From contig CAYJAJ010000003.1 of assembly GCA_964368495.1 (NCBI GenBank), positions 776-64,775 of the forward strand: DNA of 64,000 nucleotides. Reading direction: 5' to 3'. Made by a program: the position numbers and the translations under genes. The DNA comes from an uncultured Holdemania sp. (GTDB lineage Bacteria; Bacillota_I; Bacilli_A; Erysipelotrichales; Erysipelotrichaceae). Positions 1,966 to 54,525 of the stretch are shown here, one piece after another. Numbering within the stretch: the first letter of the stretch is position 1; each line of letters opens with the position of its first letter. A model generated the notes under the pieces. The model did not search any database. It had not been told where the DNA came from and was given only the letters and a program-made list of their open reading frames with translations.

Positions 1966-3027
1966 ATGGATATATTTTATTTTGTAATATTACTTGGTGT
2001 TATAGTTACAATTCATGAGCTAGGACATTTTCTTGTTGCGAAAGCGTTTAATGTATACTGCTCCGAGTTTGCGATTGGTATGGGACCAAAATTATTTAGT
2101 ATTCAAGGAAAAGAGACGAAATATAGTATTCGACTTTTACCGATTGGTGGGTTTGTACAAATGGCAGGTGAAGCAGAAACAGCACTTGAAGGCGTTTGCC
2201 CAGTAAATGTACCGCATGAGCGTACTATCAAAGGGATATCACACCCTAAGCAAATAGCGATTATGCTTGCAGGAATTGTGATGAACTTTCTGTTGGCATT
2301 TGTGCTTTTTGTCGGGATTTTTAGCGCACAGGGAATTTATCAACAAAGTGAAACCGCACAAATTGGAAGTGTAATTCAAAATAGTCCTGCAGAAATAGCT
2401 GGATTTCAAGCTAATGATTTGGTTTTATCTGTGACATATGGCGATGAAGTGTTTTATCCGGAAGTTTTTTCAGACTTAGTGAAGTTCAATGTAGGAAAAG
2501 AAGAATTGCAAAGAATATATGAAGTACAAAGAGGAACTGAGGTCTTAAAACTCACAGTAACTCCAACTTTATTTGAAGAACAAAATGCTTATTTAATAGG
2601 GATTAACGCACTTCAAGAGCATCGATCAATCAGTTTTGTTGAATCAGTTCAATTATCTATTTCGACGATGATTGAGAGTTCAACCTTAATTTTTGACGGA
2701 TTGGTTGATTTATTAAGAGGAAACAATCTTGATCAATTATCAGGTCCTGTAGGTATTTTTACAATAACAGCGCAAGAAGCTTCACAAGGATTAATTAATT
2801 ATCTATGGCTTATTGCAATGTTTTCATTAAATATTGGAATATTAAATGCTTTACCACTGCCTATTTTAGATGGTGGAAGAGCGATATTGTCTGTTGTTGA
2901 AATGGTTAGAGGCAAACCAATTAATCAAAAACTTGAAAATGCACTTATGGGAATTGGGATGGCGTTGTTGTTATCGCTAATGATATTTGCGACATGGCAA
3001 GATATCAGCCGTATAATATTTGGTTAA
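1966..3027 (+). CDS. rseP: RIP site-2 zinc metalloprotease, RseP/RasP family (M50)
   Basis: HELGHF (HExxH) in the first TM segment, a central PDZ-like segment, and a C-terminal NALPLPILDGG motif. Conserved position after dxr. Confidence 0.85.
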   Translation: MDIFYFVILLGVIVTIHELGHFLVAKAFNVYCSEFAIGMGPKLFSIQGKETKYSIRLLPIGGFVQMAGEAETALEGVCPVNVPHERTIKGISHPKQIAIMLAGIVMNFLLAFVLFVGIFSAQGIYQQSETAQIGSVIQNSPAEIAGFQANDLVLSVTYGDEVFYPEVFSDLVKFNVGKEELQRIYEVQRGTEVLKLTVTPTLFEEQNAYLIGINALQEHRSISFVESVQLSISTMIESSTLIFDGLVDLLRGNNLDQLSGPVGIFTITAQEASQGLINYLWLIAMFSLNIGILNALPLPILDGGRAILSVVEMVRGKPINQKLENALMGIGMALLLSLMIFATWQDISRIIFG

Positions 3028-3126
3028 CAATGTCATGTTTTACTAGATAAATACTGACAAATTATCTTATTGATTGTAAAGTAATAGATAGCTCATAGTA
3101 TTAGTTAAAGAAAGTTGAGGAGTTTT

Positions 3127-4140
3127 ATGAAAACAATTCTAGTAACAGGTGGAACAGGGTATATTGGTAGTCACACATGTGTTGAATTAATTAATGCAGG
3201 TTATGAAGTGGTTATACTTGATAATTTGTATAACTCAAGCAAAGAAGTATTGAACCGTATCCAGACAATTACTGGGACGCTTCCTAAATTCTATGAAGTG
3301 GATATCTTGGATAAAGAGGGAATTCGTCAGGTATTTAAGGAAAACAAAATTGATGCAGTGATTCATTTTGCAGGATACAAAGCTGTTGGTGAGTCTGTTG
3401 CAATTCCAATCACTTATTATCAAAATAATATTGCAGGATCATTAAACTTATATCAAGTGATGAGTGAAGAAGGATGCAAAAATGTGGTGTTTAGTTCTAG
3501 TGCTACAGTATATGGAGACCCTCATACTGTACCTATTAAGGAAGATTTCCCACTAAGTACAACGAATCCTTATGGAACGACAAAACTATATAACGAACAA
3601 ATTCTTCGTGATATTTGTGTGTCAGATACAGAGTTTAGTGCAATGTTGCTACGCTATTTTAATCCAATAGGGGCACATAAATCGGGGTTGATTGGCGAAA
3701 CTCCAAAAGGAATACCTAATAATTTAGTTCCGTATATTGCTCAAGTTGCGACCAAGGAACTCGATTATTTGCGTGTATGGGGCAATGATTATGATACAGT
3801 GGATGGAACAGGTGTTCGAGATTATATTCATGTTGTTGACTTAGCTTTAGGACACATTAAAGCCGTAGAATATACAATTGCTCATAAAGGTACTGAAATG
3901 GTCAATTTGGGGACTGGTAAAGGGTATTCGGTTTTACAGGTAAAAGATGCTTATGAAAAAGCAAGCAACAAAAAAATAGCCTATAAAATCATGGAACGTC
4001 GTCCTGGTGATATTGCGACTTGTTATGCTGATACAAAAAAAGCTGAAGAACTATTGAACTGGAAAGCAAAGTTTAATATTGATGAGATGTGCGAATCTTC
4101 ATGGGATTTTCAATGCAAAAATCCAGAAGGAGTAAAATAA
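3127..4140 (+). CDS. galE: UDP-glucose 4-epimerase
   Basis: ORF 3115..4140 trimmed to the ATG at 3127, behind a GAGGAG SD. ILVTGGTGYIGSH Rossmann motif, SSSATVYG, and the YGTTK catalytic YxxxK. Confidence 0.85.
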   Translation: MKTILVTGGTGYIGSHTCVELINAGYEVVILDNLYNSSKEVLNRIQTITGTLPKFYEVDILDKEGIRQVFKENKIDAVIHFAGYKAVGESVAIPITYYQNNIAGSLNLYQVMSEEGCKNVVFSSSATVYGDPHTVPIKEDFPLSTTNPYGTTKLYNEQILRDICVSDTEFSAMLLRYFNPIGAHKSGLIGETPKGIPNNLVPYIAQVATKELDYLRVWGNDYDTVDGTGVRDYIHVVDLALGHIKAVEYTIAHKGTEMVNLGTGKGYSVLQVKDAYEKASNKKIAYKIMERRPGDIATCYADTKKAEELLNWKAKFNIDEMCESSWDFQCKNPEGVK

Positions 4141-4149
4141 TGATATTGA

Positions 4150-4176
4150 CACTATGAAACTCATAGTGTTTTTTTT
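4150..4176 (+). terminator. Intrinsic terminator after galE
   Basis: Hairpin CACTATGA-aac-TCATAGTG followed by T8. Confidence 0.8.
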
Positions 4177-4184
4177 ATATCAAA

Positions 4185-4228
4185 TATAAAAAAGTCACAA
4201 AACAAGAATTTGATCTTGTGATGTGACT
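4185..4228 (-). terminator. Intrinsic terminator after asnA
   Basis: Interrupted hairpin (GTCACA..CAAGA / TCTTG..TGTGAC on the + strand), followed by T6 on the minus strand. Confidence 0.6.
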
Positions 4229-4233
4229 TGGTT

Positions 4234-5235
4234 TTATAGCAGTTGTATATTAGCGTTTTTACATTGTTCTAACATCTCTTTTGGCCAAATACTAGATTGA
4301 ACTTCACCGATGTGCACTTTTTGTAATAACAGCATACACAATCTACTTTGCCCGATACCACCGCCAATTGTGTAGGGCAGTTGTGAATTGATTACGGCTT
4401 GATGATAAGGAAGTTTTAATCTTTCGATATCTCCTGCTTTTTGACATTGAGAAACAATTGAATTTTCATCAACACGAATGCCCATGCTAGAAATTTCCAT
4501 TGCGCAATTAAGTGTGTCAAACCAATAAAGCAAGTCTCCATTCAAAGTCCAATCATCATAATCAGGTGCTCTACCATCATGTTTTTCAAAGTTTGACAAA
4601 TAATCACCAATCTTCATTAAAAATACACAACCGTGTTTTTTTGCTATTTCATTTTCTCTTTCTTTAGGTGACAAGTTAGGATAAAGATTTAGTAATTCCT
4701 GTGAAGTGATGAATGTTACATCCTCAGGAAGAGTATACACCGCCTCAGGATAAACATACCAAACTTCGTGTTCGATGTGTTTGATAACTTTGACAATTGC
4801 TTTAACTGTTTCTTTTAGCATTTCTACTGTACGTTCATCTTTATAAATAACTTTTTCCCAATCCCATTGATCAACATAAGCAGAATGAAGGTTATCTAAT
4901 GTTTCATCTTTCCTAATGGCATTCATATTCGTGTAAATACCTGTATGAGGTAGAAATCCGTAATTTTTCAAAGCCATTCTTTTCCACTTTGCTAAAGAGT
5001 GAATAACTTCTATTTGTTCATTATTCATATCTTTCATTGTAAAAGATACAGCGTCCTCAGTGCCGTTTAAGTCATCATTTAATCCAGAATTTCTTTCTAC
5101 AAATAAAGGAGCGCTAACTCGTTTTAAATTAAGCTGTCTTCCTAATTCTTTTTGAAATTTATCACGAATTATTTTTATCGCTTCTTGTGTTTGGGTTAGT
5201 GTTAATTTTGATTGATAATTTTTAGGATAGTACAT
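4234..5235 (-). CDS. asnA: Aspartate--ammonia ligase (AsnA-type asparagine synthetase)
   Basis: 333-aa minus-strand ORF. Full-length resemblance to AsnA: LTLTQTQEAIKIIRDKF..., SAPLFV, and a class-II aaRS-like core ending GGGIGQSRLCMLLL. SD GAGGTAAAG. Confidence 0.85.
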   Translation of the reverse strand: MYYPKNYQSKLTLTQTQEAIKIIRDKFQKELGRQLNLKRVSAPLFVERNSGLNDDLNGTEDAVSFTMKDMNNEQIEVIHSLAKWKRMALKNYGFLPHTGIYTNMNAIRKDETLDNLHSAYVDQWDWEKVIYKDERTVEMLKETVKAIVKVIKHIEHEVWYVYPEAVYTLPEDVTFITSQELLNLYPNLSPKERENEIAKKHGCVFLMKIGDYLSNFEKHDGRAPDYDDWTLNGDLLYWFDTLNCAMEISSMGIRVDENSIVSQCQKAGDIERLKLPYHQAVINSQLPYTIGGGIGQSRLCMLLLQKVHIGEVQSSIWPKEMLEQCKNANIQLL

Positions 5236-5662
5236 AATCTTTACCTCGCTTACATTACTTTAACTTATATTTACTATAGTTTCAAGCTATAAAAATTCAA
5301 AAGAAAGGTGAATATTAGTGTTGATAGAAAGTGAGACAAATTAGTTGCCTAGAAACTGCATGTGAGTGATTTTATTCAGATGGCTATCTTGCAAGAACAA
5401 ATGCCAACAAAATGAATAAAGTACACCACAATGGTGATAGAATTAACAATCATGAATTAGAAGAATACATTTAATTGTTACTAAAGAAAACTTAGATTAT
5501 TAAGAAAAAAAACTTTAATATGGGCTTTGTTTATGGTATTATTTTTGTGTGAAAGGACGAGATTTTTATGAAGAAAAAATACATTAATTTACCGTTTCTT
5601 TCAAAATGTGAATAAAGTTAACATAGGTATTTAATGTGCCTGTGTTTTTCTTTTATTATTTG

Positions 5663-5733
5663 CTATTGTATAAGTGAGGTAATATGGACCTCAAGTTTCT
5701 ACCTTGTTACCGTAAATGACAAGACTACAAAGT
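5663..5733 (+). promoter_or_regulatory. Purine (guanine-class) riboswitch aptamer
   Basis: CTATTGTATAAGTGAGGTAATATGGACCTCAAGTTTCTACCTTGTTACCGTAAATGACAAGACTACAAAG. It matches the conserved purine-riboswitch core (UAUAA, AUAUGG, AGUUUCUACC, CCGUAAAU, GACUA) with P1/P2/P3 pairings intact. The C in GACUA predicts guanine specificity. Confidence 0.88.
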
Positions 5734-5754
5734 AACAGTTTTTATGTTGCTTTG

Positions 5755-19946: not shown

Positions 19947-20034
19947 GAGGAGTTGGCCGAGCGGTTTAAGGCACCATCTTGGAAAGGTGGCGAAGTGAAA
20001 GCTTCCGTGAGTTCGAATCTCATGCTCCTCGCCA
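19947..20034 (+). tRNA. tRNA-Ser (anticodon GGA)
   Basis: Manual cloverleaf. Acceptor GAGGAGT/GCTCCTC, D arm GCC-GAGCGGTTTAA-GGC, anticodon stem CCATC/GGTGG with loop TTGGAAA (GGA). Long variable arm, T arm GTGAG-TTCGAAT-CTCAT, encoded CCA. Starts 5 nt after the CPBP stop. Confidence 0.9.
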
Positions 20035-35724: not shown

Positions 35725-36054
35725 ATGAGTAAAATGTGTAATTTAGATGTTCAGAATATTTTAGATATTGAATTTCATATCGATTTTAAAGGATATTCTG
35801 CAGTTGAAGTTGATCGTTTATTGGATATAGTTATTGAAGATTATCAAATCTATGATGAAAAAATTGCTTCAATGAATGAACAATTTATAGCACAAGAGAG
35901 AGTTATTGCCTCGTTAAAGGCAAAGATTATTGAACTTGAAGGTAAAGCGAAAGCATTTAAAGATACAGAAAATGAACCTGTCTCTCAATTAGATATTATT
36001 AAAAGAATTTCTAAGTTAGAGGAAGCTGTCTACAAGGAAAAAACAATTGATTAA
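35725..36054 (+). CDS. gpsB: Cell cycle protein GpsB (DivIVA-domain)
   Basis: 109 aa from the ATG at 35725. DVQNILDIEFHIDFKGYSAVEVDRLLDIVIEDYQ is the DivIVA/GpsB N-terminal domain, followed by a C-terminal coiled coil. gpsB-rnpB synteny as in Bacillus. Confidence 0.75.
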   Translation: MSKMCNLDVQNILDIEFHIDFKGYSAVEVDRLLDIVIEDYQIYDEKIASMNEQFIAQERVIASLKAKIIELEGKAKAFKDTENEPVSQLDIIKRISKLEEAVYKEKTID

Positions 36055-36398
36055 CATTCGGGTAATCGCTGGCTATTGCTAGAGGAAAGTCCATGCTCGC
36101 ACAATCTGAGATGATTGTAGTGTTTGTGCTAACTTAAAAAATAAGGTTAGGCAGGTAACTGACGGCTGAATGAACTCCTAAGGGAAACTATGGAGAACAT
36201 CTTTAAAAGTGTCACAGTGACGTAGTCTACTTGGAAACTTGTAGAGTGGAACGAGATAAACCCCACAAGCGAGAAACCCAAATTTGGTAGGGGAACTCTG
36301 TAAAGTGAATTGAAATGATACAGGGGCATACTTATTGTATGCAGATAAATGATTGCCACCTTGAAAAAGGGACAAAACATGGCTTATAGAATGTTGAT
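36050..36398 (+). ncRNA. rnpB: RNase P RNA, type B
   Basis: ATTAACATTCGGGTAATCGCTGG...GAGGAAAGTCCATGCTCGCAC...ACAAAACATGGCTTATAGAATGTTGAT. Conserved type-B core sequences. A 10-bp P1 pairs 36050..36059 with 36389..36398. About 349 nt. Confidence 0.9.
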
Positions 36399-45907: not shown

Positions 45908-48601
45908 ATGAAAAGCAAACAAATTTACTTAATATGTATTTTATTGATGAGTTTTATTAGTTATCCTGTGTTTGCACAAGATAGCCAATATGTTGTGAAG
46001 GACTTAATAAGTGATACAGTTGTAGCGACTGCAAGCACTATAAGTCAAGCAAATATAGTTTATGAAGAAAACAAACAGTTATATGAAGAATTGGCAATTT
46101 TACAAGATGAACGAATTATAGATGTTGAATATGGGATATTGTCTATACCAATTGATTCAGAAGGTTGCACATACAATTATGAATTTACAAACGATATCAC
46201 AAAACAGGCAGGTTATGTGAATGGATGTTATGGAAAAGATGCATTATTTTTGGGGATGAATGACTCAAAAACAAGTGTAAAGTTCATGATAAGCGGTGCA
46301 GTAGGTTGGGGAGATGCAGAAGATATTACAATCATTCCTTATTCAAAGATAAATCAATTGACTAGTTATGTTGTGATTGATGAAAATTTGTATCATCAAG
46401 TTAAAACAGATTTAAATAGCGATAAATATAATTCTTTAATTAATTTGGGGAATGCACCAGAGTATTTAGAAGAAAACAAAATTTATTTAAGTTATGATGG
46501 GCACTATTTTTATGATGAAGATCAATTTAGAGAAATGAGTGATGATGCTAGAAGTAATACATTCACATCTTCAATAAATGAATATGATCCTTTTTTTAAT
46601 TATTATCAGTATGTAACACATCGTACAATAAGCAATGTAAGTGAAGATATGTTAAAAGAGTATCTAAGAGATGAACTTAAAATAAGTGAATCAATAAGCA
46701 ATTACAACGATCAAAACAAAGATTCCATTCATGATGTTTTAACACAATCACAGTATTATAATTATGAAACATCATTTCATCAAAATCAAAATCGATTTGG
46801 GTCAAATGCATTGATGATGTTGGCTCTTTCCATGAATGAAAGTGCCACTGGAAGAAGTTCTTTAGCATATACAAGAAATAATTTGTTTGGTCACGCTGCT
46901 TATGATAGCGATGTAGAGAAAAATGCATCAAGATACTATAATGTATTTAATTCAGTTTATAGTCATGCAAAAAATTATATTTCTAAAAGTTATCTTAATC
47001 CAGATAAATTTCAATATCATGGTGGATATTTTGGCGATAAAGCAAGTGGTATGAATGTAAGTTATGCATCAGATCCTTACTGGGGAGAGAAAGCCGCTCA
47101 ACACTATTATCAACTTGATGAACAATTCGCTTTTGCTGACTTAAACAGTGTTGCACTTGCCATTAAAACATCTAATAAAAATATATCAATCTTTGATGAA
47201 AACAATGAAGTTTTGTATCGAAGTGGAAACAATCCTTACATGAGTTTTGTGGTGCTGGATGAAACAGATGAAATGTTTAAGATTCAAATTGATCCGGTAA
47301 TCTATGATGATTTCAATGATGAGGGAAGCTATGATTTTCAAAAAAATGTTGGATATATTTTTAAGGATGAAATCGATGTATTGTACAATGAAGACAAAAT
47401 TAGTGAAAATGAATATATTACTGTTACATTGGATGCAAATGGAGGTTATTTCTATAATGGAGAAGCTACTTTATCGTATCAAGTAAAAAAAGGTGATAAA
47501 ATTAGTGTTGAAATACCACTAAAAGAAAACGCCATCTTCGATGACTGGAATGAAGAAGTTAGTTATGCTGAAAATAATAATACATATGTTGCGAATTATA
47601 AAGAAATAGAATCAATAAATATGCACACTTTACCACCAACTATTTTAGAATACTATGACAGAATTGATTTAACAGGTGGTTCAATAGAGGTTGTTTATAA
47701 AAATAAAGAAACTGAGATAATTGAATTAAATAGTTCGATGGTATCGGGATATATAGTGAATGAAGTTGGTTTTCAAGATGTTGTTGTGAGTTATGGTGGA
47801 GCTAAGACCTCTTATGTTCTTGAAGTTTCGATGGAATTAGAGGAAGAACGTCTGCTAATCCTTGATTTAATTAGTCAGGTTTTTGAAAATTTAAATAAAG
47901 AAGGCGAATTCATAGAGGAAGATTTTAATTTGCTAGAAAAATTAAATAGTCATTTCTTAAGTTATGGGGTACCCTACATGACGTTTAATGAAACTAGAGC
48001 GTTAGATGAAATTTTCTACAACGCACTTAAAGATGATCTTCATACTGTTATATCAAAAAATGAGGTAAATCTTGCACTTAGTGGACTTTATCTACATGCA
48101 GACTACACTGAAGTTACAAAGGACAAATTTATCAAAGATACAATTCGTATAAGTTATGAGGATGCGAAGGGAAGTGAGCTTGTAAAAGATGTTTCCTCTG
48201 CTAACAATCTGGAAGTAGTACATTCTTTTAAACTAAATGGCAAGTACAATTTTGATGACTTAAGGTTAAATGATTATGTGTTAGTTTCACTTGATATTCC
48301 AGAAGGAATATCAAGCAATCAAATTATACAAGTACTTCAAGAAAGTGATGGCCATGTCATAAAATTATCTACGATTCAAACTGAAAATAAACTTGTATTC
48401 AAGACAAATGAATTCTCAACTTTCACAATTACGACAAGAAATTCTGTTAATGAATATAATTCAGAGGATGTTGTCGAAACAGTATATTTTGAAAATAATG
48501 GATTTAATATTTATGCTGTAATGAGCACTTTATTTATAGTGCTTGTTGTATCAATTTTATCAATTATTTTAATATTATATTCAAAGAAAAAGTTCAAATG
48601 A
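45908..48601 (+). CDS. Secreted, membrane-anchored cell-wall hydrolase-like protein (GH73 glucosaminidase domain plus Ig-like/beta-repeat domains)
   Basis: 897 aa. Signal peptide (LICILLMSFISYPVFAQD) and a glucosaminidase-like block (NALMMLALSMNESATGRSSLAYTRNNLFGHAAYD). Also a Listeria-Bacteroides-type repeat (VTLDANGGYF...FDDWN), a Big_3-like segment and a C-terminal TM anchor. Confidence 0.65.
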   Translation: MKSKQIYLICILLMSFISYPVFAQDSQYVVKDLISDTVVATASTISQANIVYEENKQLYEELAILQDERIIDVEYGILSIPIDSEGCTYNYEFTNDITKQAGYVNGCYGKDALFLGMNDSKTSVKFMISGAVGWGDAEDITIIPYSKINQLTSYVVIDENLYHQVKTDLNSDKYNSLINLGNAPEYLEENKIYLSYDGHYFYDEDQFREMSDDARSNTFTSSINEYDPFFNYYQYVTHRTISNVSEDMLKEYLRDELKISESISNYNDQNKDSIHDVLTQSQYYNYETSFHQNQNRFGSNALMMLALSMNESATGRSSLAYTRNNLFGHAAYDSDVEKNASRYYNVFNSVYSHAKNYISKSYLNPDKFQYHGGYFGDKASGMNVSYASDPYWGEKAAQHYYQLDEQFAFADLNSVALAIKTSNKNISIFDENNEVLYRSGNNPYMSFVVLDETDEMFKIQIDPVIYDDFNDEGSYDFQKNVGYIFKDEIDVLYNEDKISENEYITVTLDANGGYFYNGEATLSYQVKKGDKISVEIPLKENAIFDDWNEEVSYAENNNTYVANYKEIESINMHTLPPTILEYYDRIDLTGGSIEVVYKNKETEIIELNSSMVSGYIVNEVGFQDVVVSYGGAKTSYVLEVSMELEEERLLILDLISQVFENLNKEGEFIEEDFNLLEKLNSHFLSYGVPYMTFNETRALDEIFYNALKDDLHTVISKNEVNLALSGLYLHADYTEVTKDKFIKDTIRISYEDAKGSELVKDVSSANNLEVVHSFKLNGKYNFDDLRLNDYVLVSLDIPEGISSNQIIQVLQESDGHVIKLSTIQTENKLVFKTNEFSTFTITTRNSVNEYNSEDVVETVYFENNGFNIYAVMSTLFIVLVVSILSIILILYSKKKFK

Positions 48602-48716: not shown

Positions 48717-50774
48717 ATGAAAGAAATCTATAAAGGATTTAATGATGGAGTTTGGTCAAAGGAAATAAATGTTCGTAATTTCATTCAAAAAAATTATACT
48801 CCATATGATGGAGATGAGTCATTTTTATGTGAACCTACAAAAGCTACTGTTGAATTATGGAATCAAGTAATGGATTTAACAATGCAAGAAAGAGAAGCTG
48901 GTGGGGTTCTTGATATGGATACCAAAGTTATCTCTACAATTACTTCACATGCTGCGGGGTATTTGAATAAAGATTTGGAAACAATTGTTGGATTTCAAAC
49001 TGAGAAACCATTTAAAAGATCATTACAACCATATGGTGGTATTCGCATGGCCGAAAAAGCTTGTAGTGATAATGGGTATGAGGTAGCACAAGAAATCAGT
49101 GATTTTTTCAGCGTTCATCGCAAAACACATAATGCTGGTGTATTTGATGCCTATACTCCAGAAATGCGTGATTGTCGCTCAAGTCACATTATTACAGGAT
49201 TACCAGACGCTTACGGTCGTGGACGTATTATTGGGGATTATCGCCGTGTTGCTTTATATGGTGTCGATCGTTTAATTGAAGATAAACAAGCTCAAAAAGA
49301 TTCAACACGAACTATTATGTATTCGAATGTTATTCGTGAACGTGAAGAATTATCTGAACAAGTTCGTGCATTAAAAGATTTAAGAGAATTAGGAAAGATT
49401 TATGGCTTTGATATTTCAAAGCCTGCAAAAGATACAAAAGAAGCTATTCAATGGTTGTATTTTGGGTATCTAGCAGCTGTTAAAGAACAAAATGGTGCAG
49501 CAATGTCACTTGGTAGAACTTCTACATTTATTGATATTTATGCAGAAAGAGATTTACAAAATAATGTGTATACTGAAGAAGAGATTCAAGAATTTGTTGA
49601 TCACTTTGTAATGAAATTACGCTTAATTAAATTTGCACGTACCCCTGAATACAATGAATTATTCTCAGGAGATCCAACTTGGGTGACTGAGGTTCTAGGT
49701 GGTATCGGAATTGATGGGCGTCATTTAGTTACTAAAAGCTCATTCCGTTATTTACATACACTAAAAAATCTAGGAACTTCTCCTGAGCCAAATTTAACGG
49801 TTTTATGGAGTCCTCGCTTACCTATGAATTTTAAACGCTTCTGTGCAAAAACATCAATTGAATCATCATCCATTCAATATGAAAATGATGATTTAATGAG
49901 AGTTAGTCATGGTGATGATTATGCTATTGCATGCTGTGTTTCATCAATGATTTTAGGTAAAGAAATGCAATTTTTTGGAGCTCGTGCTAATTTAGCGAAA
50001 TGCTTGTTATATGCCATCAATGGTGGTGTTGATGAAATTTCAAAAAAACAAGTAGGACCTCGTTATAAAGCAGTTACAGGTGACTACCTTGAGTATGATG
50101 ATGTAATGGAAAAATATGAAGACATGATGAAATGGTTAGCACGCGTTTATGTTAATACATTAAACATCATTCATTATATGCATGATAAATATTGTTATGA
50201 AAAATTACAAATGTCATTGCACGATAAAAATGTAAAAAGATGGTTTGCTACAGGTATAGCAGGACTATCGGTAGTTGCAGATTCATTGTCAGCAATTAAA
50301 TACGGTAAAGTAAAAGTTATTCGTGATGAGGATGGAATTGTTGTTGATTATCAAATTGAAGGAGATTTCCCGAAATATGGTAATGATGATGATCGTGTTG
50401 ATGATATCGCTAATGAAATTGTATCGATGTTTATGGCATACATTCGTGGTAACCACACTTATCGTGGAGGAATTCCTACAACTTCAATTTTAACAATTAC
50501 ATCGAATGTCGTTTATGGAAAAAACACTGGTTCAACACCTGATGGTAGAAAGTTTGGAGAACCATTTGCACCTGGTGCAAACCCAATGCATCGTCGTGAT
50601 GAAAAAGGTGCGGTTGCATCATTAGCATCAGTTTCAAAATTACCGTTCTCTGATGCACAAGATGGTATTTCAAATACATTCTCAATCGTTCCTAATGCAC
50701 TTGGAAAAGAAATAATTATGGGTTCAGAAATTGATGTTGATATGGATCTTGATGAGGTTGAAAATAACGAATGA
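48717..50774 (+). CDS. pflB: Pyruvate formate-lyase catalytic core, lacking the C-terminal glycyl-radical domain
   Basis: 685 aa. Collinear with PflB from the N-terminus ([25 protein letters not shown]) through the active-site IACCVSSM to [10 protein letters not shown]. It then has a 21-aa acidic tail and a TGA. There is no RVSGY motif in this ORF. Confidence 0.85.
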
Positions 50775-51010
50775 GCCAAAATAAGCTGATTGATGATATT
50801 ATTGCACAACTTGATAAAAATATTGAAAATGGAATTGGTCATGTAAATGTACAAGTAAAGGGTAATGATGTGACACTTGAAAAAATTACTAAAAATGAAA
50901 CAGATTTTCAAAAAGAAGTAGAAAAATTTAGTAGTGTTGAATGCCAAGGAAATACGGCATGCTGTAGTCCAACATTAATGGATGGACTAGATATCGTGGA
51001 GGAAGAATAA
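50771..51010 (+). CDS. 79-aa paralogue of the PFL glycyl-radical domain lacking the radical glycine
   Basis: The ATG overlaps the pflB-core TGA (ATGA). Same length as the next ORF and collinear with it ([24 protein letters not shown] vs [23 protein letters not shown]). It has EKFSSVE where RVSGYAV is expected, and contains TACCSPT. Confidence 0.6.
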
Positions 51011-51011
51011 G

Positions 51012-51251
51012 ATGGAACAAAAAAATCAAATTGATAATTTAGTGCAATTACTAGATGGTTATATTGAAAAAGGTGGTCATCATTTAAATGTAAATGTATT
51101 TACAAAAGAAACATTATTAGATGCACAAAAACATCCTGAGAAATATCCACAATTAACAGTGCGTGTTAGTGGATATGCGGTTAATTTTAATAAATTAACT
51201 AAAGCTCAACAAGATGAAGTTATCACAAGAACATTTCATGAACAAATCTAA
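51012..51251 (+). CDS. Stand-alone glycyl-radical domain (GrcA-like; equals the detached PflB C-terminus)
   Basis: 79 aa. GGAGGA SD 8 nt upstream of the [58 protein letters not shown] is the canonical PFL glycyl-radical signature. Confidence 0.85.
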
Positions 51252-51253
51252 TT

Positions 51254-52003
51254 ATGTTACAGGGTAAAATTCATTCTGTAGAAAGTTTTGGAACAGTAGA
51301 CGGACCTGGGATACGCTTTATTGTGTTTATGCAAGGTTGTCCACTTCGCTGTTTATACTGCCATAACCCAGATACGTGGAGTATGCATAGTGAGACATTA
51401 ATGAGTATTTCTGAAATATTAAATCAATATAAGCGCAATGAACAATTTTATCGTGATGGTGGAATTACATGTACTGGTGGAGAACCGCTTTTACAAATAG
51501 ATTTCCTGATTGAACTATTTCGTGAGGCAAAAAAACTAGGTATTCATACTTGTCTTGATACATCAGGGATTTGCTTTACACGCTTACAAATTGATAAATA
51601 TAAACAACTTGCGTCTGTGTGTGATTTAGTGCTTTTGGATATCAAACATATCGACGAAGAGATACATCATAAATTAACTGGAAGCAGTAATAAAAACATT
51701 CAAGAATTTTTAGCGTTTTTAGATGAAGAAAATGTTCCGGTTTGGATTCGTCATGTTTATATTGATGAACAATTTAATAGCAAAGAAATGTTAAGAAAGT
51801 TAGGACAGTTTATTGGTCAATACAGAAATGTGAAAGCCGTTGATGTGCTTCCGTATCATACTATGGGAAAAAATAAGTATGAAAAGTTGAATATTGAATA
51901 TCCATTACAAGGATATAAAGATGTAAATATTGAAACTGCAAAATCAGCACGAAATGAAATTTTACGTGGTATCAAAGATATTAGGACAACAAAAAATAAG
52001 TAA
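51254..52003 (+). CDS. pflA: Pyruvate formate-lyase activating enzyme (radical SAM)
   Basis: 249 aa. SVESFGTVDGPGIRFIVFMQGCPLRCLYCHNPDTW (CxxxCxxC) and TCTGGEPLLQ. Confidence 0.92.
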   Translation: MLQGKIHSVESFGTVDGPGIRFIVFMQGCPLRCLYCHNPDTWSMHSETLMSISEILNQYKRNEQFYRDGGITCTGGEPLLQIDFLIELFREAKKLGIHTCLDTSGICFTRLQIDKYKQLASVCDLVLLDIKHIDEEIHHKLTGSSNKNIQEFLAFLDEENVPVWIRHVYIDEQFNSKEMLRKLGQFIGQYRNVKAVDVLPYHTMGKNKYEKLNIEYPLQGYKDVNIETAKSARNEILRGIKDIRTTKNK

Positions 52004-52006
52004 GTA

Positions 52007-52047
52007 ATCACACTTCATTAATTTGAATAATGGAGTGTGATTTTTTT
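52007..52047 (+). terminator. Intrinsic terminator after pflA
   Basis: 14-bp stem ATCACACTTCATTA / TAATGGAGTGTGAT (one G-U pair), loop atttgaa, followed by T6. Confidence 0.85.
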
Positions 52048-52259
52048 AATTTATAAAAATCGTTAGTATTTAACAATTAGTGGTGCTTTGTAGAATTTCT
52101 ATAGTATAATAGATATTGTGAAAAACAGAATCAAGATTCATAAATCAGTTTAAGTTAAAGACGAGATAAAACAATAAAGATTAAAATGAAACCATTTCTT
52201 TTTGTTTTATGTAACATTATTTGCAAAACAGGTTGGTTATAAAAATGGAGGAAAATTGC

Positions 52260-53330
52260 ATGAAACAAATGATGTGGGCTATAGTTAAAGATAAGATGGA
52301 TGTTGGAGTAACGTTAAAACAAGTACCAGTACCTGAAGTAAAAAAAAATGATATTAAAATAAAAATTAAAACAGCATCAATATGCGGTACAGATGTCCAT
52401 ATCTACATTTGGAATGATTGGGCAAAAAAGACAATTAAACCTGGACAAGTTATTGGACATGAATATGTAGGTGAAATAGTTGAAATTGGCGAAAATGTAG
52501 AAGGATTCAATATTGGAGATATAGTAAGTGGAGAAGGTCATATTGTATGTGGACATTGTAGAAATTGTTTAGCAGGGAACTATCATTTGTGTCCTAATAC
52601 ATCGGGAGTCGGAGTTAATCGTGATGGTGCATTCGCAGAATATTTGGTTATTCCATCAAAAAATGCATGGCATGTCAATCCTGAAGTCAAAGAAGAATTG
52701 TATTCATGTTATGATCCATTTGGAAATGCTGTGCACACTGCACTTGCTTATCCGTTAGTTGGAGAGGATGTCTTAATTACTGGTGCAGGACCAATTGGTT
52801 GTATGGCTGCTGCCATCGCTCGACATGTTGGTGCAAGACATGTTGTAGTTACAGATGTGAATGAGTATCGTTTGGAGCTTGCAAAAAAATTAGGGGCTAC
52901 ATGCACCGTAAATGTTGCAAAAGAAAAAATAGAAGATGCTATGAAAAAGCTCAAAATGAAAGAAGGTTTTGATGTTGGGCTTGAAATGTCAGGAAATAAA
53001 TATGCTTTTCATGATATGGTTCATGCTATGAGTAATGGTGGTAAAATTGCTGTGCTTGGATTACTTCCATCAAATACATCAATTAATTGGGAAGAAGTTA
53101 TTTTTAACCAACTCACAATCCGTGGAATATATGGACGAAAAATATGGGATACATGGTATAAAATGGACATGATGATTCAAAGTGGATTGAATATTGAGCC
53201 AATCATAACTCACCACTTTGATGCAATTGATTATGAAAAAGGGTTTGAGATAATGGTAAGTGGAAAAAGTGGTAAAGTTGTGCTCGATTTTACTAAATTA
53301 AAAGATTTTAAAGGAGCGAATTATGAATAA
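52260..53330 (+). CDS. tdh: L-threonine 3-dehydrogenase (zinc-dependent)
   Basis: ORF trimmed to the ATG at 52260 (GGAGGA 7 nt upstream). [34 protein letters not shown] and GAGPIG motifs. Confidence 0.85.
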
Positions 53331-54525
53331 AACTGAGGCATTAAAGTATTATAAGGATACGGTTGAATCAATTATTGATGATGGGCTTTTTAAAGGGGAA
53401 AGTCCAATTTCATCATCTCAAAGTGCACACATTAAACTAAGTAATGGCAAAGAAGTTTTGAATATGTGTGCAAATAATTACTTGGGACTTGGCAATAATC
53501 AAAAATGTATCGATGCAGCTAAAAAAACAGTTGATGAAAAAGGCTATGGATTAGCTTCCGTACGCTTTATTTGTGGTACGCAGGATATACATAATCAATT
53601 AGAAAAAAATATAAGTGAATTTTTAAATATGGATGATACCATTTTATATAGTTCATGCTATGATGCAAACGGAGGTTTATTTGAAACACTTTTAACTGCA
53701 GAAGATGCAATTATAAGCGATGAATTAAACCATGCTTCTATTATTGATGGTATACGCCTGTGTAAAGCAAAAAGGTTTCGCTATAAAAACAACAACATGG
53801 ACGATTTAAGAAGTCAACTAGTTGCTGCAGATGAAGCAGGAGCGAGAATTAAAATGATTGCGACAGATGGTGTGTTTTCAATGGATGGAATTATTGCTAA
53901 TTTAAAAGATATCTGTGATTTGGCAGAAGAATTTAATGCATTAGTTATGGTGGATGATTCTCATTCAGTTGGTTTTGTAGGTAAAACTGGAAAAGGAACT
54001 GCAGAATATTGTGATGTGATGGGACGTGTAGACATTATTACTGGTACCTTAGGTAAGGCGTTAGGAGGAGCTTCAGGCGGGTTTACTTCGGCTAGAAAAG
54101 AAATCGTTGATTTGCTTCGTCAAAGAAGTCGCCCCTATTTGTTTTCGAATACTTTAGCACCGTTTATTGTAGGAGCTAGCATTGAAGTGTTTAATTTAAT
54201 TAGCCATGATAAGTCACTACGCGACACTTTGGAGCATTTAACAAAAACATATCGTGATGCACTCACTGAAGCTGATTTTGACATTATTGATGGGGTTCAT
54301 CCTATCGTACCAATTATGCTATACGATGAAAAATTAGCTGCAAAATTTGCAAAAAAAATGATGGATAAAGGTGTGTATGTTGTGTCTTTTTCTTATCCTG
54401 TTGTCCCAAAAGGGAAAGCACGAATTAGAACTCAAGTAAGTGCTGCTCATACAAAAGAGGATATTGATTTTGTTGTTAAATGCTTGAAGGAAGTACGAGA
54501 AGAAATAAACCAGGAATTGAAATAA
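53323..54525 (+). CDS. kbl: Glycine C-acetyltransferase (2-amino-3-ketobutyrate CoA ligase)
   Basis: 400 aa. [29 protein letters not shown] (PLP lysine). Overlaps tdh by 8 nt. Confidence 0.88.

Follow-up and report, generated by a model that had tools for sequence, protein, structure and literature searches.

In a 64,000-nucleotide stretch of an uncultured Holdemania sp. genome (GenBank assembly GCA_964368495.1, contig CAYJAJ010000003.1; hereafter the window, numbered from its first letter), a small open reading frame (ORF) lies between the two halves of a split pyruvate formate-lyase (PFL). We have high confidence that this gene, ORF2, encodes a real, selected and chimeric accessory protein of the split enzyme. 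Comparative evidence identifies its 79-amino-acid (aa) product as a chimera of the docking half of a glycyl-radical domain and a two-cysteine module that sits at the split junction of the enzyme.

The operon comprises four genes, encoding a truncated PFL core, ORF2, the autonomous glycyl-radical domain GrcA3 and the activating enzyme PflA, with the following features:

48717..50774, + strand: truncated PFL core, 685 aa (TIGR01255, Pfam, alignment to E. coli PflB)
50709..50771, + strand: acidic C-terminal extension of the core, 21 residues, alternating hydrophobic and acidic, with no cysteine
50771..51010, + strand: ORF2, 79 aa, ATG start, of an unnamed small-protein family tied to split-PFL operons
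50771..50869, + strand: ORF2 residues 1-33, helix (3-19) and beta-strand G-x-G-H-V-N-V-x-V (hhalign, BLASTP, AlphaFold2 [AF2])
50912..50995, + strand: ORF2 residues 48-75, two-cysteine module K-x-V-x-x-x-S-x-E-C58-x5-C64-x-x-P67-T-L69-x-D-G72-L-D74 (alignments, module profile)
50942-50944 and 50960-50962: codons of the invariant cysteines C58 and C64
50996-51007, + strand: acidic tail of ORF2, directly after the two-cysteine module
51012..51251, + strand: GrcA3 (ORF3), autonomous glycyl-radical domain, 79 aa, RVSGYAV with Gly54 (NF038360, PF01228)
51254..52003, + strand: PflA, pyruvate formate-lyase activating enzyme, radical S-adenosylmethionine (SAM) family (TIGR02493, 286 bits; cutoff 231.75)
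52006..52042, + strand: intrinsic-terminator-like hairpin with a T-run, end of the four-gene operon (terminator scan)

The core scores 1081 bits on TIGR01255 over profile positions 2-662 of 744, and Pfam matches PFL-like together with the first half of Gly_radical. Its alignment to E. coli PflB (63% identity) stops at the ALGK motif (K676, mature E. coli numbering), so that the window core is the equivalent of PflB 1-676 followed by a 21-residue extension with no counterpart in PflB. GrcA3 is the equivalent of PflB 676-759 and scores 165.8 bits on NF038360 (cutoff 158) and 85.7 bits on Pfam Gly_radical at profile positions 49-106. The ORF2 start overlaps the TGA stop of the core as ATGA (50771-50774), 1 nucleotide (nt) separates ORF2 from ORF3, and no terminator-like site was found between the four genes. 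An earlier reading made from the letters without database searches (the sequence-only reading) had reported the coordinates of ORF2, its length equal to that of the radical minigene and the overlapping start; all of these hold. ORF2 is tightly packed with core, GrcA3 and PflA, with one terminator after pflA.

Radical-domain ancestry of the ORF2 N-terminus

Pairwise BLASTP (E=1e-6) aligned ORF2 with GrcA3 at 32% identity over 59 residues, including an 8-residue gap. Comparison of the two families by hhalign returned 36 columns, corresponding to ORF2 residues 1-33, with a probability of 95.7% (E=9.6e-9), and past residue 33 this profile-profile comparison detected no relationship to the radical domain. 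The NCBIfam GrcA3 model gave a sub-threshold match in 37 of 49 ORF2-family members, at the N-terminus every time; for the window ORF2, NF038360 yields 13.7 bits (E=0.05; cutoff 158 bits) over profile positions 3-42 only, and PF01228 (cutoff 22.2 bits) does not match. The sequence-only reading had proposed a gapless alignment over the first ~50 residues. The N-terminal similarity is indeed above chance, but homology is confined to residues 1-33/36, with the gap beyond it and an ungapped identity of 4/21 at residues 30-50.

A PDB-based alignment between GrcA3 and E. coli PFL, in which GrcA3 residue 8 equals PFL T683 and PflB 683-757 is covered, places this segment structurally. ORF2 residues 7-29 correspond to PFL 682-709, comprising a surface helix and the barrel strand beta10, and ORF2 D15, H24, N26 and V29 correspond to D690, H704, N706 and V709, which are conserved in PflB and other glycyl radical enzymes. 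Two motifs, L-D (14-15) and H-x-N-[VI]-x-V (24-29), are common to ORF2, GrcA3, PflB and other glycyl radical enzymes. By alignment, ORF2 retains the N-terminal helix and beta10 strand of the radical domain (..IDNLVxLLDGY..GGHHLNVNV), and its insertion into the barrel is predicted. Because the helix and beta10 residues are kept, the segment may be argued to reside still in a PFL-like environment, namely the beta10 barrel slot. To our knowledge, completing the core barrel is the single role of this half of the radical domain. The alignments thus indicate that the ORF2 N-terminus is an old copy of the radical-domain docking half.

The catalytic half is missing. In ungapped register, EKFSSVE of ORF2 faces RVSGYAV of GrcA3, with S54 opposite the radical Gly54, and no ORF2-family member contains an R-V-x-G-[YF] loop; the single conserved late glycine sits in E-G-L-D. 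The window ORF2 is accordingly not literally glycine-less, its near-invariant G72 lying in this E-G-L-D motif, outside any RVxG[YF] context. The C-terminal helix of the radical domain (..LTxxQQxxVIxRTF) is likewise absent, and the AF2 model of ORF2 shows no helix beyond residue 19. Since both the glycyl loop and the C-terminal helix are missing, activation of ORF2 by PflA is impossible, which bears out the earlier description of ORF2 as a radical-domain paralogue, with EKFSSVE opposite RVSGYAV, that is unable to carry the radical.

The AF2 monomer of ORF2 comprises the helix 3-19 and strands within 27-36 (a short hairpin), the remainder being disordered (predicted local distance difference test [pLDDT] 58.5). 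In the GrcA3 monomer, residues 29-79 are modelled confidently (pLDDT 77-87) and residues 1-28 at ~40, with helices at 3-19, as in ORF2, and at 32-40 and 64-75. ORF2 thus retains exactly the half of GrcA3 that is not confidently modelled as a monomer.

A two-cysteine module shared between ORF2 and core tails

Split cores from operons without ORF2 run on past the ~20 residues after ALGK into a tail that bears the ORF2-end motif C-x(n)-C-x-x-P-T-L-F-E-G-L-D and acidic residues, as exemplified by loci L012 (core 2863-4983; ...GDIEVDFECTDGACMSPTLFEGLDAE), L042 (...FELEPDCACCEPNASLDSEE) and L060 (...DIEVELDCANGACASPTLFEGLDAE). Of 50 ORF2-less core tails, 27 scored >10 bits with a hidden Markov model (HMM) built from ORF2 residues 48-75 only, and no shuffled tail (n = 2,500) exceeded 10 bits, the maximum being 7.2 bits. 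The main tail type reads ...D-C-x2-4-(G)A-C-x-x-P-T-L-F-E-G-L-D plus acidic residues, and most of the other tails show a shorter variant, E-P-D-C-A-C-C-E-P-N (Blautia, Sellimonas and other Lachnospiraceae). Cysteine spacing in the tails ranges from 1 to 6; in the alignment, no counterpart of the tail is seen at the corresponding position of E. coli PflB.

The two architectures are distributed in a complementary manner. At least two cysteines occur in the last 32 residues of 49/50 ORF2-less cores, whereas no cysteine at all occurs there in the 22 cores counted as ORF2-bearing, one of which (L035) is really a frameshifted tailed core. The ORF2-bearing cores extend 14-25 residues past ALGK, again with no cysteine in 22/22. 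Together, the profile scores and motifs indicate that the C-terminal third of ORF2 is an independent conserved module homologous to the tail of ORF2-less cores, and overturn its earlier interpretation as a diverged radical loop. The same comparison points to a fusion/fission pair, in which the two-cysteine module accompanies the split state universally, either in cis as a core tail or in trans as part of ORF2.

This arrangement bears on a further point of the sequence-only reading, which had counted absence of the ORF from relatives that keep the split as evidence against a function. ORF2 is in fact absent from ~3/4 of split-PFL operons; because the module is fused to the core there, however, its function appears to be kept and not lost.

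In many split cores, that of the window included, ALGK is also followed by a stretch in which hydrophobic and acidic residues alternate (e.g., GDIEVDLD); it is not found in E. coli PflB and might act as a strand. An over-strict pattern for this stretch matched 50 of 73 cores.

Family size, sequence conservation and selection

Exhaustive HMMER searching of 1.84 billion representatives recovered 29 clusters at the 50% identity level (E<1e-3), and a profile search recovered at least 2,334 clusters at the 90% identity level, with members of 62-116 aa that are all unnamed or annotated as "hypothetical protein." The window ORF2 scores 95 bits against the family profile. Hosts include Lachnospiraceae, Hungatella, Lacrimispora, Clostridium sp. 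Marseille-P2415, Holdemania and Ruminococcus, with Clostridium sp. Marseille-P2415 and Lacrimispora brassicae among the cultured carriers. Neither Pfam (2025 copy) nor NCBIfam release 20 holds a model of the family, and ORF2 has no Pfam match at E<=1. A sequence search of the PDB gave nothing related to ORF2 (no match with E<0.06), and Foldseek gave no match with E<3.9, a weak fold test given the low-confidence model. A word-indexed protein search with ORF2 returned only the self-match, no contig was matched by its exact sequence, a metagenome scan with the window ORF2 by itself returned no close relative, and full-text literature searching on GrcA3, split PFL and related subjects yielded nothing. 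Both the ORF2 family and the core tails are undescribed.

Across the ORF2 alignments, D15, G23, H24, C58, C64 and P67 are invariant and L69, G72 and D74 nearly so. The strand motif G-H-x-N-[VI] is present in 138/138 members, and C...C-x-x-P in 135 of them, the other three being fragments; among these 135, the cysteine spacing is 6 in 122 and P-T-L is present in 127. The resulting family pattern has an N-terminal part, I-D-D-I-V-x-x-L-D ... G-x-G-H-[VM]-N-[VI], and a C-terminal part, C-x(5-6)-C-x-x-P-T-L-x-[ED]-G-[LM]-D, that leads into an acidic tail. The window ORF2 fits this pattern and has all nine of these positions (D15, G23, H24, C58, C64, P67, L69, G72, D74). The Cys-Cys pair highlighted by the sequence-only reading does exist in the window as adjacent C64-C65, but such a vicinal pair occurs in only 2/135 members and is not the family signature; the invariant pair is C58/C64.

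In the least saturated ortholog pairs, the ratio of nonsynonymous to synonymous substitution rates (dN/dS) of ORF2 is 0.074 (dS 0.30) and 0.063, compared with 0.018-0.034 for the core and 0.027-0.056 for GrcA3. Amino acid identity between the window and locus L004, from a Holdemania metagenome-assembled genome (MAG), is 46% for ORF2 and 84-87% for the core and GrcA3. ORF2 is therefore clearly under purifying selection, yet evolves faster than its neighbors; neutral evolution in relatives, which would have spoken against a function, is not what these values describe. ORF2 is preceded by its own AGGAGG-type Shine-Dalgarno (SD) sequence where an intergenic gap exists, and elsewhere overlaps the core stop through ATGA or by 8 nt; from core stop to ORF2 start, the distance spans -17 to +63 nt across loci.

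Several divergent copies were observed. A degenerating ORF2 at L081 (4742-4936) has lost the His and P-T-L motifs, and the Ruminococcus copies at L018 (4730-4963) and L023 (2253-2486) show G-T-G-R in place of G-x-G-H and end in ...ACAQPNE. Several operons with a divergent ORF2 type have no pflA downstream.

Exclusive synteny with split PFL

We surveyed 80 species-level loci retrieved with GrcA3 as the query. All 80 encode a split PFL, with a core of ~680-720 aa, then a separate GrcA3 and usually PflA, and 21 of them contain an ORF2-family gene between core and GrcA3. The same position was recovered in 5 loci reached from three independently picked family members and in 35/35 metagenome loci retrieved with a tighter ORF2 subfamily alignment. 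In total, ORF2 lies between a truncated PFL core (678-697 aa) and GrcA3 in 61/61 loci, and no family member was seen in any other context among the loci examined. The window conforms to this context, ORF2 being placed between GrcA3 and an ALGK-truncated core without a Cys tail.

Evolutionary origin

The sequence-only reading deduced an old tandem duplicate from the gapless alignment and pointed out the equal length of the two 79-aa ORFs. This equality is coincidental, because the ORF2 family typically spans 62-89 aa (GrcA3, 79-82 aa); the paralogy itself stands, as an old and partial one. The N-termini of ORF2 proteins resemble their cognate GrcA3 no more than non-cognate ones (scores 48.3 versus 47.2). 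The duplication must therefore be old, with no gene conversion maintaining it; a recent duplication or gene conversion with the operon's own GrcA3 is excluded by the same scores.

In a neighbor-joining (NJ) tree of the cores with E. coli PflB as the root, operons carrying ORF2 are spread over a basal clade, the window clade, which includes Holdemania MAGs (core 84% identical), and several Lachnospiraceae branches, and tail-bearing cores are nested in several places. Two one-step routes fit the data. In the first, ORF2 came first and an in-frame deletion joined its module to the core; in the second, the tail came first and a tandem duplication across the split junction, from the tail through the stop into the 5' end of grcA3, would have created the ORF2 chimera.

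How ORF2 may act

A socket cap and an assembly factor, two of the roles put forward in the sequence-only reading, are the best functional candidates. Most likely, ORF2 is a "dummy cartridge" or an accessory subunit that delivers the Cys module, with a mechanism we infer as follows. ORF2 would be made together with the core, and its helix and strand would insert into the vacant radical-domain socket of a radical-free core. Docked in this way, it would place the Cys module at the split junction or the active-site entrance, where the module could stabilize or protect the open barrel and the catalytic cysteines, or take part in metal or redox chemistry. ORF2 would then give way, leaving the socket to PflA-activated GrcA3. 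In ORF2-less operons, the core-tethered tail would do an equivalent job in cis. The specific proposal that ORF2 is a non-activatable dummy cartridge in the radical-domain socket, drawn from motif and alignment evidence, is our tentative preference, plausible without being probable.

Experiments in E. coli frame this proposal. PFL truncated at residue 695 regains full activity with YfiD once activated, although its binding of YfiD is too weak to measure, and residues 696-733 (the beta10 segment), which are left in oxygen-cleaved E. coli PFL, are required for YfiD binding (PMC8683613; PMC13450708).

Several observations weigh against the dummy cartridge. If ORF2 and GrcA3 share one socket, a strictly co-transcribed competitor looks costly. 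The tail of ORF2-less operons has no helix-strand, and the function of the Cys module must therefore not need socket occupancy. The AF2 monomer of ORF2 is of low confidence (pLDDT 58.5), with a disordered Cys module; His24 is lost in a few members (L018/L023, L081); and the NJ tree is compatible with both the ORF2-first and the tail-first order.

A broader and more doubtful extension of the dummy-cartridge proposal, possible at best, treats the naturally split PFLs, which are widespread among gut Bacillota, as hitherto unrecognized three-part "cartridge" enzymes in which a long-lived core works with an exchangeable radical cartridge (GrcA3) and a two-Cys element (tail or ORF2) that is obligatory. 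Sockets of protomers that lack a radical, perhaps those of the silent half in a half-of-sites dimer, would be plugged by ORF2, which would control radical-domain exchange, protection or switching-off.

Alternative explanations

The main rival to the dummy cartridge, which we consider rather unlikely, is an adaptor or clamp that stays in the holoenzyme. Here, ORF2 or the core tail would recruit and hold GrcA3, through beta-sheet or helix packing on its N-terminal half or through a Cys2-His metal site, and so offset the lost covalent link. This explanation accommodates the covalent fixation of the tail at the docking site of the GrcA3 N-terminus (the core ends at K676 and GrcA3 M1 lies at about residue 676) and the unmeasurable YfiD binding of E. 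coli PFL without 696-733 (PMC8683613), and a small metal site would suit the near-fixed Cys spacing (122/135) and the His24 that is invariant in the main family. However, the beta10-type residues of ORF2, if inserted in the barrel, exclude GrcA3's own beta10. The variable Cys spacing of the core tails (1 to 6) and the lack of any cysteine in GrcA3 also count against a clamp. The GGHH motif of GrcA3 is not split-specific either, and the idea of a split-specific "GGHH metal clamp" is weakened because the unsplit HypD also has GHH.

Alternatively, the module could serve as a redox guard or radical quencher, with its thiols near Cys418/Cys419 or the Gly radical acting as resolving cysteines against over-oxidation of the core or as an H-atom donor ("deactivase"). 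The two cysteines are the most conserved feature in both architectures, the module is acidic (median net charge of the ORF2 tail, -5) and, in the AF2 model, flexible, and PFL is highly oxygen-sensitive, the split design rendering its radical part replaceable (PMC8683613; PMC13450708). Nevertheless, no conserved thioredoxin-like partner is encoded nearby, and this role overlaps with the dummy-cartridge model instead of excluding it. Such a function of the thiols is compatible with both the dummy cartridge and the clamp; as a separate explanation we judge it unlikely.

Small accessory chains of other glycyl radical enzymes provide a third comparison. BssB and BssC of benzylsuccinate synthase (beta/gamma) and HpdC of 4-hydroxyphenylacetate decarboxylase (gamma) are ~60-90 aa chains encoded beside the catalytic subunit that attach close to the radical domain and influence how it moves (reviewed in PMC13450708). 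ORF2, likewise a small protein with conserved cysteines encoded beside a glycyl radical enzyme catalytic subunit, could by analogy be an Fe-S or other metal-binding small subunit. This is improbable. BssB/BssC and HpdC hold [4Fe-4S] clusters through four cysteines and show no relation to the radical domain; ORF2 has C58 and C64 as its only invariant cysteines, no Pfam match or PDB sequence relative, and an N-terminus that comes from the radical domain itself. It resembles these subunits solely as a small accessory chain. Class III ribonucleotide reductase NrdD has a C-terminal Cys4 zinc site beside its glycyl radical domain, needed for radical-domain positioning. That site, however, uses four cysteines in two CxxC pairs within the catalytic chain and shares no sequence similarity with ORF2.

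The idea that ORF2 is a mis-called ORF, or a tandem-duplication remnant that has no function and only happens to keep its frame, is very hard to sustain. Its faster evolution and the one degenerate copy (L081) would be expected of a remnant, but a dN/dS of 0.06-0.07, a motif invariant across at least 2,334 clusters, the fixed synteny in 61 loci, conserved SD sequences of its own and a distribution complementary to the core tails refute the "decaying duplicate" that the sequence-only reading had kept as an option.

Equally slight is the chance that ORF2 is a ribosomally synthesized and post-translationally modified peptide (RiPP)-like precursor, with leader and Cys-rich core, modified by the adjacent radical SAM enzyme, or that frameshifting or read-through attaches it to the core: although a small Cys peptide does lie beside a radical SAM gene and its start overlaps the core stop, that radical SAM enzyme is an equivalog-level PflA (TIGR02493, 286 bits) with no SPASM or RiPP recognition element domain, most relatives carry the same module at the end of a 700-aa enzyme, and no frameshift site is conserved because the core-ORF2 spacing varies (-17 to +63 nt) and the SD sequences are separate.

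Two further candidates were rejected. Direct reading of the sequence with TGA as a sense codon yields nonsense and then a stop, which excludes TGA read-through, and GrcA3 has no Cys/Ser/Thr junction residue for intein-like splicing.

Relation to known systems and significance

Like ORF2, the autonomous glycyl radical cofactors (E. coli YfiD/GrcA, T4 Y06I, NCBIfam GrcA2/GrcA3) derive from the C-terminal radical domain of PFL as small stand-alone proteins, possess the helix and beta10 docking segment and have their genes alongside those of PFL and PflA. ORF2 differs in lacking the RVxG[YF] loop and the C-terminal helix and in possessing a two-Cys module absent from every GrcA. For these reasons, and given its sub-cutoff GrcA3 score, ORF2 is not a spare radical carrier, and it falls outside the GrcA family because three of the four features defining that family fail in it.

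Two systems come closer. Residues 696-733 of oxygen-cleaved E. coli PFL, the YfiD "recognition element" (Andorfer et al. 2021, PMC8683613), represent the same beta10-region segment as ORF2, likewise without a functional glycyl loop and beside a separate radical-bearing protein; in E. coli, however, this segment is a covalent leftover of oxidative damage, whereas ORF2 has a gene of its own and carries a Cys module in addition. The tails of ORF2-less split cores share the homologous C-x(n)-C-x-x-P-[TN]-L-x-E-G-L-D plus acidic module at the same split-junction position and are mutually exclusive with ORF2, from which they differ in being covalently attached to the core and in lacking the helix-strand.

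PFL, the founding member of the glycyl radical enzymes, holds a central place in the anaerobic metabolism of gut Firmicutes. The split operons touch on two questions, namely how the buried radical domain leaves the barrel for activation and how YfiD-type spare parts recognize and enter the damaged enzyme. Here, PFL is split by design and comes with a radical-less copy of the very helix and beta10 segment that is critical for spare-part binding in E. coli, fused to a two-Cys module. Docking, exchange and protection of the radical domain can therefore be studied in a natural system whose parts are genetically separable, and ORF2 defines a large protein family so far without a name. In a glycyl radical enzyme review of June 2026, spare-part proteins figure solely as rescue devices, and neither a natural split nor a PFL small subunit is mentioned (PMC13450708). 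If the three-part cartridge proposal were true, nature would already have built the system of truncated PFL (tPFL) and YfiD that was engineered in E. coli, with ORF2 or the tail as an added component that solves its problem of weak binding and exposure.

Genomic surroundings

Directly upstream of the PFL operon in the window, an 897-aa ORF (45908-48601) has a hydrophobic signal-like segment at its N-terminus and a membrane anchor at its C-terminus. Two genes follow downstream (52221-54525), one threonine dehydrogenase-like (ADH_N/Zn-ADH) and the other glycine C-acetyltransferase-like (Aminotran_1_2), and the same dehydrogenase/acetyltransferase-like pair follows the PFL operon in the Holdemania MAG locus L004, which points to an Erysipelotrichaceae origin of the window. 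RNA elements in the window are a purine riboswitch (5646-5747, 80.5 bits), a tRNA (19947-20031) and a class B RNase P RNA (36054-36391, 293 bits), whose class fits a Bacillota genome.

Among the other loci, a divergently oriented small DUF1858 (PF08984) gene lies just upstream of an ORF2-bearing split PFL operon at L086 (1476-1676, - strand) and L090 (1509-1700, - strand), a position at which the window has no such gene. An unrelated 124-aa ORF (4517-4891) separates the tailed PFL core from GrcA3 at L033, where the gap is 606 nt compared with the usual <100 nt. Finally, a 111-aa GrcA3 with a ~29-residue internal direct duplication is encoded on a 2.3-kb metagenome contig (P0002/L001, 345-680) and may be an assembly artefact.

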